From the IMG/VR virus record IMGVR_UViG_2923334124_000002: DNA of 56,113 nt. One strand, 5' to 3'. Source of the DNA: a virus. Its lineage: Duplodnaviria > Heunggongvirae > Uroviricota > Caudoviricetes. The notes below the pieces were generated by a model. It was given only the letters and a program-made list of their open reading frames with translations. It did not search any database and was not told where the DNA came from. Within the stretch, counting starts at the first letter, position 1, and each line of letters begins with the position of its first letter. A program made the position numbers and the translations under genes. Below are positions 23,196 through 30,211 of this stretch, in pieces.

Positions 23196-25777
23196 TTTCC
23201 GCCTCCTGCATCCCGCCCACGTTTTGCAGCCAGGGTCCAGGCTGATGAATGAGCTTCTCCGGGTTTATCTTCGGTCATACTGTTGCAGTGCCACAGCGAG
23301 CCCCCCCACGTCACCGTATCGCCGGGGTGGTAGGTTTCACCGGCTCTGAACACACCGCGGTAGAGCATCACCGGCAGGGAAAATGTTTTTTCCGTACGCT
23401 GGCCACTGCTCTGCCGGACCACCACAGAGAACAACCGCTCACCCGTCATGCTGACGTCAATATCCGCCACCCCGTCAACCAGGCATTCCCATCCCCGCAT
23501 CCCGTGCGTTTTTTCATACGCCCGCCAGAGTCCGCCCTGGTGTGTGGCATACGTGCCCCGGGGAAAGGATTTTTGATCGTCAATGGCGGGGAGTATTTCC
23601 AGAGCCGTGGCATCACGCCCGTCCTGCGGAGCCGGCAGGGCACTCACCGCATCCAGAACCGCCTTCTGCAGAACATCCGGATCGTAGTCACGACCATCAC
23701 GCGGAACATGAATATGGCTTACCGCCTCCTTCACCATCTGTTCAAGCATCGGACGCACATCATCCGGGGTGAGACTTTTACCGTCTGCCGGCTGCGGAAT
23801 ATTTGCGACCGCATCATTCACCGCCTTCTGCAGAACATCGGGATCATAGTCACGACCGTCGCGCGGAACAGGGATATGGCTTACAGCCTCCTTCACCATC
23901 TGTTCAAGCATCGGACGCACATCATCCGGGGTGAGACTTTTACCGTCCGCCGGCTGCGGAATATTTGCGACCGCATCATTCACCGCCTTCTGCAGTACTT
24001 CCGGATCGTAGTCACGACCATCACGCGGAACAGGGATATGGCTTACAGCCTCCTTCACCATCTGTTCAAGCATCGGACGCACATCATCCGGGGTGAGACT
24101 TTTACCGTCCGCCGGCTGCGGAATATTTGCGACCGCATCATTCACCGCCTGCTGCAGTACATCCGGATCATAATCACGACCATCACGCGGTACCGGAATG
24201 GCCCCCACAGCGTCATCCACCATCGCCTGCAGAACCGGACGCACCTCATCCACCGTCACATGCTTCTGTAATACCGCCGACAGGGAAGTCAGTTTCTCTT
24301 CAAACGCTTGTGCCTGCGAGGCCATCTTCCCCTCAAATGTGCGCTGTAAATCCGCCAGCACTGTGGAGAATTCTTCTCCCAGTGCACGAATAATGGACAG
24401 TTCCCGTTCCGTCATTTTCTCAGTATCCCCCCTGAACATCGCTTTCACCGCATCATGCTCTGTTTCACTGATTGCCTTATTACCGTCAGATGCGCCGTCA
24501 GGCAGCTGTGATGAAACTGTTTTCCCGGCAGACGCGAACGGATCCTCACGGGCATCACGACGGGACAGCGCCTCCAGACTGTAGTTCTGCTGCTGAAGAT
24601 ACAGTGCATCACCGCCGGCCAGGGGCGGCAGGTTCTCCCGTTTACGGGCCTCATTGGGCGTGAGAAGCGTATTTTTCACCGCATCCCCCAGCGTTTTCAT
24701 GCGCCGCTCACTGTCCATTCTCAGCAGCGTGGTGACATCAAATTCTGTACTCTCGTTTTCCCCCGTTTCCAGCGCCTCATCCAGTAACAGTTCAATGGAC
24801 TCAATCAGCGTCTGCAGGCACTGGGAATAATACTGCTGCTCCAGCGCCTCCACGTTGTCACTGGAAGGCGGTTGTCCCACGCCAATCTTGTAGGCCGGGA
24901 CACGGAACACCGAACAGACAATTTCAGCGGTCATCTTCAGTTGTTCCACCGTCTGCGCATCCACAGGTGAAAACGTCGTGGGGTTGTATTTTGCCCCGTT
25001 GCTCAGAATGGCCGTTTTCCCCGCATTTTCGCCTGTATACCCGCTGTCCCAGTTGCTCTTCAGTTTTTTCGCATTTTCTTCCGTAATACTGCCGGGGATC
25101 TCAATCACCCCGGACGGCCTGCCGCCATTTCTGAAAAAAGACGTCGAATTTTCCTGAATATGATGCCCCTGCGTGGCCGCCAGCCCGGCGGCATACACCG
25201 GCGGCAATCCTATAAGCGGATGAAAAAAACAGTTAAACCGGTCGTGGATCACTTCCCGGGCAGGCACCGTCACCGCCTCCGTGATCCCGCAGTTCCGGTC
25301 CGGCGTGATGCGGTAGAACACCTCGCCGTCATCCGCCACCAGAGGTTCAACCCGGCTCCAGTCCAGAATACGCAGTTCTTTGATCTGCCCCCGGGCATTA
25401 CGGATTTTCAGCACCACCGTATTGCCATGACGCAGTTTGGCGTTCAGCCACAGTTCAAAAAACTGGATGCGGTTCTGCTGGGCGTTGGGACGACGACAGA
25501 GGCGGGCAATATCCCCCCGGCGCGTTTCCCTGCGTATCCCATGCGCATCCGTCTGCATAAGACGCAGCCGCATTTTGGCGATATCCTGGGATATCAGCGA
25601 AATACATGCAAACACCGCATGAAAGGAGAGGACGGCTTCAGGATCGGCTTTCACGCCCTGCTGCCAGGCGCCGGAAAAGGGCTCAGCCACCGCCTGAAAC
25701 AGGCTGGTCCAGCCCGCCTCTCTTACGTCACGTCCTGATTTCTGGTTTTTTCGGGTTCGCCGTAAAAGGTTCCACAT
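23192..25777 (-). CDS. HK97-family portal protein with about 450-aa C-terminal extension containing tandem 40-aa repeats
   Basis: 861 aa; N-terminal half has portal motifs (FRNGGRPSGVIE..., ...LLRMDSERR...); C-terminal part has 3.5-4.5 copies of VPRDGRDYDPDVLQKAVNDAVANIPQPADGKSLTPDDVRPMLEQMVKEAVSHIP. Confidence 0.75.
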   Translation of the reverse strand: MWNLLRRTRKNQKSGRDVREAGWTSLFQAVAEPFSGAWQQGVKADPEAVLSFHAVFACISLISQDIAKMRLRLMQTDAHGIRRETRRGDIARLCRRPNAQQNRIQFFELWLNAKLRHGNTVVLKIRNARGQIKELRILDWSRVEPLVADDGEVFYRITPDRNCGITEAVTVPAREVIHDRFNCFFHPLIGLPPVYAAGLAATQGHHIQENSTSFFRNGGRPSGVIEIPGSITEENAKKLKSNWDSGYTGENAGKTAILSNGAKYNPTTFSPVDAQTVEQLKMTAEIVCSVFRVPAYKIGVGQPPSSDNVEALEQQYYSQCLQTLIESIELLLDEALETGENESTEFDVTTLLRMDSERRMKTLGDAVKNTLLTPNEARKRENLPPLAGGDALYLQQQNYSLEALSRRDAREDPFASAGKTVSSQLPDGASDGNKAISETEHDAVKAMFRGDTEKMTERELSIIRALGEEFSTVLADLQRTFEGKMASQAQAFEEKLTSLSAVLQKHVTVDEVRPVLQAMVDDAVGAIPVPRDGRDYDPDVLQQAVNDAVANIPQPADGKSLTPDDVRPMLEQMVKEAVSHIPVPRDGRDYDPEVLQKAVNDAVANIPQPADGKSLTPDDVRPMLEQMVKEAVSHIPVPRDGRDYDPDVLQKAVNDAVANIPQPADGKSLTPDDVRPMLEQMVKEAVSHIHVPRDGRDYDPDVLQKAVLDAVSALPAPQDGRDATALEILPAIDDQKSFPRGTYATHQGGLWRAYEKTHGMRGWECLVDGVADIDVSMTGERLFSVVVRQSSGQRTEKTFSLPVMLYRGVFRAGETYHPGDTVTWGGSLWHCNSMTEDKPGEAHSSAWTLAAKRGRDAGGGK
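23640..24215. repeat. tandem repeat, unit about 120 bp, about 4.5 copies, in-frame within the portal gene
   Basis: near-identical 120-bp units read directly from sequence. Confidence 0.8.
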
Positions 25778-25944
25778 TCGCCATGCTCCGCATCACGTTT
25801 CTTTTTCTGACCTGCCGGACGTCGCACCGTGATGTACTCCGCCTTTCCCAGGCGAACCAGCACCTCCGCACACGGCTGTGCCACATCACGGATATCCCCG
25901 GCCCGGGCATCATGCGTGCCCTGCAGATATCGGATCTTTGCCAT
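25723..25944 (-). CDS. hypothetical small protein between capsid and portal genes
   Basis: 73-aa ORF; overlaps the annotated portal start in another frame, so either this ORF or the portal start is mis-set. Confidence 0.3.
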   Translation of the reverse strand: MAKIRYLQGTHDARAGDIRDVAQPCAEVLVRLGKAEYITVRRPAGQKKKRDAEHGECGTFYGEPEKTRNQDVT

Positions 25945-29651: not shown

Positions 29652-30211
29652 CCGTTGCCCTCATTATCGTTATTCACCACCAGTCGGGGGGGCGGTGGCA
29701 CCGCAAAACGGTTAGCCGCTTTTTTCGCGGCATCACCTTTTGCCGATTTTTTCCCGGTATCCCCTTTTTTATGGTGCGTGAACTGCGCCAGACGCCAGGC
29801 CGCATCCAGTGCCAGTTTCGGATCAATGCAGAGGTTTTCCACCAGGATCCGCCCCATGGCTTTCACCGGATCGGGAAGACCATCCTCCATATATTCAATA
29901 CCAGGAGACATCACCGCGGACGGTGGCATCTCCAGATTGTTTTCGTCCGGCTGTGGTATTGCAGCCGCCTCACGGCGACGGGGTTTATCCTCCTGCTCTG
30001 ATTTTTTCTGCCGGTAAACAGGAACCTCATCCACCTCCACCGTCTCGCATTGTTTACGGGCTATAAACGCAAGCACCTCAGGATCTTTTGCCAGCTGCGA
30101 GCCTTTAACCCTGGCGGTCTTCGCCGAATAACCGGCGGCAATGGCTGACGCTGTTTTGTTTTTCCCGGACATGAGCGCCAGCGCAAATTTTCGTTTTTGC
30201 GTTGTCAGCAC
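29648..30211 (-). CDS. terS: terminase small subunit (P27-family-like)
   Basis: 187 aa; N-terminal HTH-like MLTTQKRKFALALMSGKNKTASAIAAGYS; directly upstream of terL. Confidence 0.7.
   Translation of the reverse strand: MLTTQKRKFALALMSGKNKTASAIAAGYSAKTARVKGSQLAKDPEVLAFIARKQCETVEVDEVPVYRQKKSEQEDKPRRREAAAIPQPDENNLEMPPSAVMSPGIEYMEDGLPDPVKAMGRILVENLCIDPKLALDAAWRLAQFTHHKKGDTGKKSAKGDAAKKAANRFAVPPPPRLVVNNDNEGNG

Follow-up and report, generated by a model that had tools for sequence, protein, structure and literature searches.

The 56,113-nucleotide (nt) caudoviricete record IMGVR_UViG_2923334124_000002 (hereafter the window, meaning that whole stretch of DNA) carries on its minus strand a phage head module, in which a prohead protease of the S78 family, a scaffold-like delta domain and a capsid protein are joined in one open reading frame (ORF) of 645 amino acids (aa). 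Taken as a whole, the module is likely best explained as a member of an HK97-like lineage with a fixed gene order, in which this protease-delta-capsid fusion gives rise to two chains and matures by cleaving itself. The arrangement is real, abundant and already annotated, and the fusion is of a known kind; the additions made here are modest ones, namely a start signal inside the fused gene and a fusion of the portal to a fibre-like protein that depends on a run of G residues.

Read along the minus strand, the genes follow the order HNH endonuclease, small terminase subunit (TerS), large terminase subunit (TerL), 645-aa fusion, a small ORF (orf73), portal and HK97-type neck genes (Table 1). The ORF positions and strand given in a first-pass annotation of the window are exact, with every ORF on the minus strand; its TerS and TerL assignments are borne out by Pfam and PHROG profile matches, and Pfam, NCBIfam and PHROG agree with its view of the 645-aa ORF as S78 protease, scaffold-like part and capsid. 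The contrast that it drew with HK97 also holds: HK97 encodes TerS, TerL, portal, protease and major capsid protein (MCP) in that order, each as a separate gene, whereas here TerL is followed by the protease-capsid fusion, orf73 and only then the portal, and the canonical succession TerL-portal-protease-capsid of separate genes is absent. Its description of the order as unusual is apt when set against the HK97 textbook layout, but the order is the norm in a very large and long-annotated lineage.

Searches with hidden Markov models (HMMs) place Peptidase_S78 (PF04586) at aa 48-152 of the fused protein (34.7 bits, cut-off 21), Phage_capsid (PF05065) at aa 386-635 (53.1 bits, cut-off 24.2) and TIGR01554, major_cap_HK97, at aa 204-584 (78.1 bits, cut-off 27.5; profile positions 3-355), and phrog_617 spans the whole protein with an E-value (E) of 1e-261. 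The score against TIGR01543, 46.5 bits, lies below its equivalog cut-off of 59. NCBIfam and PHROGs each hold families for protease-capsid fusions; among these NF045541 (prohead protease/major capsid fusion) gives 54 bits over aa 48-287, does not reach its cut-off of 525 and describes another fusion lineage. As TIGR01554 aligns from profile position 3, the region between protease and shell is best regarded as the HK97-type delta domain of the capsid and not as an unrelated linker; helices at aa 195-222 and 229-260 are predicted there in an otherwise poor AlphaFold2 (AF2) model. No ClpP or S49 match was found in the protein at E<=0.01 in Pfam, S78 being the only protease family detected. In evolutionary terms, an HK97 gp4-type protease gene has lost its stop codon and reads into a gp5-type capsid gene, and this is the state of most members of the lineage.

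The protease region shows 29% identity to HK97 gp4 over aa 21-156. The catalytic residues of the HK97 protease are reportedly His65 and Ser114; in the alignment Ser110 of the fused protein stands opposite gp4 Ser114 (GLSVGF / GMSVGF), and His55 falls one column off gp4 His65. Both predicted catalytic residues are invariant in the enterobacterial alignment, and among family representatives without a gap at the position His55 is kept in 144/144 and Ser110 in 143/144.

Inspection of the joint between the protease and delta domains reveals a conserved signal for translation initiation within the gene. Met193, the first residue of the delta domain, is invariant in the enterobacterial alignment, and a Met lies 1-9 aa (mostly 4-5) ahead of the EQI motif in 131 of the 145 fused representatives, most of the 14 exceptions carrying at this place a Val, which is what an internal GTG would encode. 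The representatives are less than 50% identical to each other and the linker ahead of Met193 is otherwise variable, Met accounting for 0.4% of its 40 preceding residues. At the nucleotide level, a Shine-Dalgarno (SD) core is found 5-17 nt upstream of the internal start in 22/23 loci, as against 11% of other in-frame positions, and any glycine that falls within the SD motif is encoded by GGA, a rare codon used for 11.5% of Gly in these genes. The signal takes the form AGGAGG-N6-GTG in a Hydrocarboniphaga locus and GAAGGA-N8-ATG in one from Hyphomicrobiales. Further, unfused relatives (5 or 6 of the top representatives) start exactly at the Met193 position; the separate capsid protein of Burkholderia phage vB_FUBS1, for instance, has its Met1 aligned to Met193 and continues at 38% identity through to the C-terminus. 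An in-frame internal start with its own ribosome-binding site (RBS), of the kind known from lambda C/Nu3, is thus conserved in these genes. Because start codon and SD are both retained precisely at the fusion joint, they suggest that the gene yields two in-frame products, the 69-kDa protease-delta-capsid chain and a 48-kDa delta-capsid chain (delta-MCP) of 453 predicted residues that lacks the protease domain.

On balance we lean, by a modest degree, towards a nested three-in-one gene, in which the internal start would make most of the coat subunits without protease, and a minority would bear the protease as an N-terminal extension that delivers it and sets its dose. Several points weigh against this reading or against the wider one to which it belongs. 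The upstream start has a strong AGGAGG (GGAGG in most relatives), so the long form need not be the minor one, and Lys, Gly and Glu residues with purine-rich codons abound in the linker, so the SD-like signal could be partly compositional. The AF2 model of the 645-aa protein, built with 25 homologues of 73-78% identity, has a predicted local distance difference test score (pLDDT) of 42, and the three-domain architecture is drawn from HMMs and not from fold comparison. Additionally, with two insertion sequences (ISs) and a frameshift-fused portal, the copy in the window may not make virions. The strong long start and the purine-rich linker would equally suit a pure polyprotein, in which only the 645-aa chain is made, each subunit brings its own protease, and Met193 with its purine-rich motif is a relic of the start of the ancestral capsid gene or a by-product of composition. 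We regard this as unlikely, inasmuch as a relic should have decayed over such divergence, yet Met, or else mostly Val, is retained across clusters below 50% identity behind a linker nearly devoid of Met that varies freely, the SD core is correctly spaced in 22/23 loci (background 11%) with GGA glycine codons in it, and the Hydrocarboniphaga locus has a perfect AGGAGG-N6-GTG.

The predicted maturation site of the nested gene's products lies at the end of the delta domain. K331 is a Lys in 125/150 and an Arg in 20/150 representatives, and it is followed by SAVGAGTTTDPQWAGSL, which resembles residues 107-141 of the HK97 mature N-terminus, shortly after the cut between K103 and S104. On account of this conservation and downstream likeness, a maturation cut is predicted between K331 and S332, which would leave a coat protein of 314 aa and 33 kDa. 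A PDB sequence search with the 645-aa protein gave one marginal capsid match (9d9w, E 0.0017), a shallow family alignment compared with HK97 gp5 by hhalign found nothing, and a 150-sequence alignment gave a weak global match to gp5 residues 117-376 (E 0.015, probability 3%). In this weak, low-confidence alignment the HK97 crosslinking triad K169/N356/E363 corresponds to K406/G611/E618. Lys, Asn and Glu occupy the three positions in 124-129 of the 150 family representatives, Asn being present at aa 611 in 124; at this weakly aligned position Gly is found in the window and in every close E. coli allele, with the Lys and Glu partners retained, and by this low-confidence alignment the window has an incomplete chain-mail triad. 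The E. coli phages may, tentatively, have lost chain-mail crosslinking.

These elements can be assembled into a tentative pathway. The GTG at 27926 would start a 69-kDa protease-delta-capsid chain, and the internal RBS with the ATG of Met193 would probably give a second one, the 48-kDa delta-capsid chain. The two chains would assemble together on the portal by way of their capsid and delta domains, their N-terminal portions facing inward, and some coat subunits would thereby bring the protease in as an extension. His55 and Ser110 would then cut off the protease and delta domains, the final cut falling between K331 and S332, such that the 33-kDa HK97-fold shell protein remains, and the HNH-assisted terminase would package the DNA.

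The phyletic spread of the module shows how common this arrangement is. Many E. coli chromosomes carry the 7-kb module at 100% identity, and of 5426 complete E. coli genomes 1257 contain it, at a median of 5 places per genome; 95 phage records also have it at 95-100% identity, chiefly those of Stx1a- and Stx2c-converting phages with some Stx2a-converting ones, among them 2851 (98% identical), YYZ-2008, JLK-2012, BP-4795 and 1717, in which the fused gene is annotated as 'major head protein/prohead protease'. Full-length homologues of about 645 aa are present in Salmonella, Enterobacter, Klebsiella, Serratia, Pantoea and others. An exhaustive search recovered 12577 relatives with 1197 representatives at E<=1e-30, and, of the 150 top clusters (50% identity), about 144 represent full-length fusions. 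For the gene order, we compared 26 loci from other species, at 39-77% identity, spanning Enterobacterales, Proteus, Arsenophonus, Marinobacter, Hydrocarboniphaga and metagenome-assembled genomes of Hyphomicrobiales and Caulobacteraceae. The same order was found in all 26 of these loci from other genera, TerL-fusion-(small ORF)-portal-Ad1 being kept wherever the flanks are present, and it recurs in Klebsiella contigs and in the isolated phages 2851, vB_PaS_IME307 and vB_FUBS1. Pseudomonas phage vB_PaS_IME307 has this layout with a 667-aa fusion, and vB_FUBS1 has the order with a protease gene (212 aa) and a capsid gene (444 aa) that are not joined. Because vB_FUBS1 keeps the order with unfused genes, the order is a stable trait of the lineage at the level of sequence comparison, independent of the fusion, and it appears to predate it. 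The lineage is large and proteobacterial, made up of HK97-like modules with the order HNH-TerS-TerL-protease-capsid-small ORF-portal-(fibre)-adaptor. A recent or IS-driven rearrangement of the order was rejected in view of its conservation in the related loci, vB_FUBS1 and vB_PaS_IME307.

The gene downstream of orf73, which the first-pass annotation took for the portal, is indeed an HK97-family portal, but only over the first ~454 of its 861 aa. Phage_portal (PF04860) matches aa 54-382 (E 6e-81; 272.6 bits, cut-off 39.1) and TIGR01537, portal_HK97, scores 349.4 bits (cut-off 112), portal profiles being confined to aa ~45-400 of the ORF; aa 47-397 are 27% identical to HK97 gp3, and PDB portals are matched by 9lbn (E 1e-28) and 8cez (E 4e-20). 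In phage JLK-2012 the same DNA is read as two ORFs (450 and 407 aa) with an ATGA overlap, the only relevant difference being a run of five G residues (G5) where the window has six (G6). Of 24 informative loci, 22 likewise encode the portal (~450-480 aa) and the next gene (~300-570 aa) apart and in differing frames, as do Klebsiella contigs; the split portals share the C-terminal peptide ...AMLRGLLxK* and usually lack the G-run. Since most relatives have two ORFs, a conserved portal end and stand-alone homologues of the fibre-like protein, the split state is, by sequence comparison, the ancestral one, from which the window departs by a derived +1 frameshift fusion. By exact-pattern counts, IMG/VR stretches comprise 41 with G6 and 57 with G5; G6 lies mainly on a single flanking haplotype, and both alleles occur on four haplotypes. 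Phage 2851, reportedly a transducing phage, carries the fused form. A locus of Candidatus Pantoea communis (10169-13915) has an independent portal-fibre fusion of 1248 aa. It suggests a recurrent origin of such fusions, and that they are tolerated. Programmed frameshifting at the G-run was rejected as the principal reading: the run is absent in most other genera while the ATGA two-ORF arrangement is conserved.

The portion fused to the portal has a predicted helical N-terminus, followed by tandem repeats and a C-terminal domain that resembles CBM5/12 (Table 1), and its alphaproteobacterial homologues have collagen repeats. Of 586 homologues of the C-terminal domain, the 120 that score best are stand-alone proteins (148-298 aa). 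Stand-alone homologues of the fibre-like part are labelled in databases as 'portal protein' (PHROG 1289) or 'gp6-like head-tail connector protein', labels that look like name transfer. Repeats and modelled tip together suggest a fibre-like protein with a carbohydrate-binding-type tip. Its architecture would point to an external fibre, collagen-like proteins inside capsids also being possible.

Two further explanations bear on the portal and on the module at large. The 861-aa ORF could be a genuine portal of enlarged size, with its C-terminal 400 aa making up an internal structure, for example a P22-like barrel. The fused form is widespread (it is seen in a PHROG profile of 859 aa, in 41 of 98 IMG/VR stretches and in phage 2851), it arose independently in Candidatus Pantoea communis, the segment just past the junction is predicted to be helical, and portal-MuF fusions are listed among the Microbacterium phages in PMC7302621. 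We nonetheless consider an enlarged portal very unlikely, given the split genes of the 22 informative loci and of Klebsiella with their conserved portal C-terminus and ATGA overlap, the single G that makes the difference in E. coli, and the fibre architecture of the extension with its CBM5/12-like tip and the collagen repeats of its homologues. That the portal ORF is a true frameshift fusion, and that the prophage harbours IS21-family and IS66-family insertions, might also raise the suspicion that the protease-capsid fusion and the gene order are themselves artefacts of prophage decay, i.e., a join by frameshift or deletion, or a portal moved by an IS. This is barely credible: thousands of proteobacterial sequences have the same 645-aa architecture and order, both recur in the isolate-deposited phages 2851, vB_PaS_IME307 and RHph_X2_26, and the order holds where protease and capsid genes are separate.

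Comparison with known systems helps to place the module of the window. It resembles HK97 in its S78 protease, in the HK97-family capsid HMM matches with an N-terminal delta domain, in its HK97-family portal, in the Ad1, Hc1, gp10-like and terminator neck genes (Pfam Phage_connect_1, Phage_HCP, HK97-gp10_like and Tail_completion_gp17), and in the HNH gene beside the terminase. An HNH gene in this position is typical of HK97-like cos packaging modules, and its place 5' of TerS is kept in most related loci. It differs from HK97 in that the portal follows the capsid gene and not TerL, protease and capsid form one ORF, the portal has a small ORF on one side and a fibre-like gene on the other, and the crosslinking Asn is, by the weak alignment, Gly in the E. 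coli alleles. With the Salmonella phage Gifsy-2 it shares a single gene that combines protease, central scaffold-like region and HK97-type coat protein in an enterobacterial lambdoid prophage. The Gifsy-2 protease is reportedly ClpP-like, the tripartite gene is said to have been described without an internal start, and its cluster reportedly follows a lambda-like order (portal ahead of the capsid gene) and includes a gpD-like decoration protein. Unlike this ClpP-like enzyme, the protease of the window is of the S78 type, which makes the module an analogue of Gifsy-2 and not a member of its group. The Gifsy-2 protease-scaffold-capsid fusion is cited in PMC12315714, with reference to Effantin et al. 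2010 (Virology 402:355).

Annotated protease-scaffold-capsid fusions are also recorded in PMC7302621 for actinobacteriophages (Microbacterium cluster EE, Arthrobacter AN/AX/FE, Gordonia CW/DM). These similarly place maturation protease, scaffold and HK97-like capsid subunit in one gene, but they have small genomes (~17 kb), Gram-positive hosts and an otherwise canonical organisation, and are likened here by description. Nested protease/scaffold genes are described in bioRxiv 10.64898/2026.09.13.751334 for lambda C/Nu3, herpes simplex virus 1 (HSV-1) UL26/UL26.5 and HFTV1 gp17/gp17.5; in these, an in-frame start within the protease gene yields a second and more plentiful assembly protein, which lacks the N-terminal part but ends at the same C-terminus. 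That logic is suggested here too by the conserved RBS and ATG at Met193, initiation there being predicted from the signal, but the shared C-terminal part of those genes is a detachable scaffold, whereas here it would be the delta domain and the coat protein itself. For Microbacterium phage clusters EA/EB, PMC7302621 describes portal-MuF fusions; there too, the usual downstream neighbour of the portal gene occurs among related phages on its own or joined to the portal C-terminus, but the partner here is not MuF-like and consists of a repeat or collagen stalk with a CBM5/12-like tip. A literature search on PAJU2 capsid processing and on vB_EcoS-783R2 gave nothing useful.

Between the capsid and portal genes, orf73 is conserved in position and sequence in 17 loci (Enterobacterales), with a conserved N-terminal stretch of ~38 aa (MAKIRYLQxTHD...VLVLLGKAEY) and a Lys-rich basic tail; it has no Pfam or NCBIfam match and is matched by phrog_829 only. 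Counterparts in other genera have 51-58 aa and stop at the portal start; in the window this stop has been lost, and orf73 extends 55 nt into the portal ORF. The terminator-like hairpin after TerL is followed by AGGAGG and the GTG start of the fused gene. In the region 25945-25985, AAGGAGG precedes the second hairpin and the orf73 ATG comes after it, and relatives have a similar hairpin with TTTT directly before this ATG. The second hairpin is possibly a partial terminator or attenuator, or else it brings together a split RBS; speculatively, the hairpins after TerL and the capsid gene could tune expression.

Within an E. coli chromosome, the window constitutes a lambdoid prophage; it is of the same kind as the long-tailed Stx1a/Stx2c phages 2851, JLK-2012 and BP-4795, and is probably defective. 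Two ISs lie within it, at 7835-10137 and ~33359-35775: one is of the IS21 family (IstA/IstB) and interrupts a Lom/Ail gene in the identical record of strain 4/4; the other, of the IS66 family with three ORFs, lies in the lysis region and is absent there in strain 4/4. Upstream of the late region, two phage tRNA genes are encoded on the minus strand (40150-40226 and 40327-40402), a tRNA-Arg(tct) and one with the anticodon cat, the second being annotated as tRNA-Ile in strain 4/4.

Table 1. Features of the head module and its flanks in the window, listed in the direction of transcription.
Feature	Coordinates	Strand	Basis or remark
HNH endonuclease	30502..30867	-	directly 5' of TerS; NCBIfam HNH-type match; RefSeq 'HNH endonuclease' in strain 4/4
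TerS, 187 aa, GTG start	29648..30211	-	Pfam Terminase_2 E 1.3e-8; phrog_641 E 7.6e-68
TerL, 553 aa	27990..29651	-	TerL_ATPase and TerL_nuclease; phrog_9 E 4.5e-145
Terminator-like hairpin and T-run between TerL and capsid gene	27948..27965	-	consensus match only
Fused protease-capsid gene, 645 aa, 69 kDa	25989..27926	-	Pfam, PHROG and NCBIfam matches
Protease domain, aa 1-~160	27447..27926	-	Peptidase_S78 at aa 48-152
Predicted catalytic His55 codon	27762-27764	-	codon verified
Predicted catalytic Ser110 codon	27597-27599	-	codon verified
Internal RBS AAGGA (27361-27365) and ATG of Met193 (27348-27350)	27348..27365	-	predicted start of 453-aa, 48-kDa delta-MCP
Delta/scaffold domain, aa 193-331	26934..27350	-	TIGR01554 from aa 204; predicted long helices
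Predicted mature capsid, aa 332-645, 33 kDa	25992..26933	-	Phage_capsid at aa 386-635; hhalign to HK97 gp5
Codon of aa 611	26094-26096	-	aligns with HK97 crosslink Asn356 (weak)
GC-rich hairpin, 22 nt, capsid stop to orf73 ATG	25953..25974	-	sequence and fold; z-score only -1.5 (weak)
orf73, 73 aa	25723..25944	-	phrog_829 E 4e-39
861-aa ORF starting with portal	23192..25777	-	ORF list, profile matches
Portal proper, aa 1-454, 50.6 kDa, HK97 family	24416..25777	-	Phage_portal, TIGR01537
G6 homopolymer	24427..24432	-	one G over the G5 allele; joins portal in frame with next gene
Fibre-like protein, aa 455-861, 44.5 kDa	23192..24415	-	fused to portal here, separate gene in most relatives
54-aa tandem repeats, 3.3 copies	23658-24251	-	in fibre-like part
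C-terminal tandem CBM5/12-like domain	~23195-23575	-	confidently modelled
Ad1 adaptor	22869-23195	-	Pfam and PHROG connector families
Head closure Hc1	22509-22859	-	Pfam and PHROG connector families
gp10-like	22066-22512	-	Pfam and PHROG connector families
Tail terminator	21725-22069	-	Pfam and PHROG connector families

Public records of phages and genomes have contained this sequence, with its fusion and gene order, for two decades, and fusions of this type are described in the literature; annotators should treat neither this order nor the 645-aa ORF as an error. In the same vein, the names 'portal protein' (the 861-aa form, PHROG 1289) and 'gp6-like connector' in this lineage include, or stand for, a separate fibre-like protein. 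In E. coli, a one-base polymorphism in a G-run decides whether this protein is free or fused to the portal, and it may affect the adsorption of Stx1a/Stx2c-type phages. The conserved internal start offers a simple model of protease dosage in fused protease-capsid genes; if true, it would extend the logic of lambda C/Nu3 and UL26/UL26.5 to the coat protein itself, across a lineage that roughly one in four complete E. coli genomes contains.

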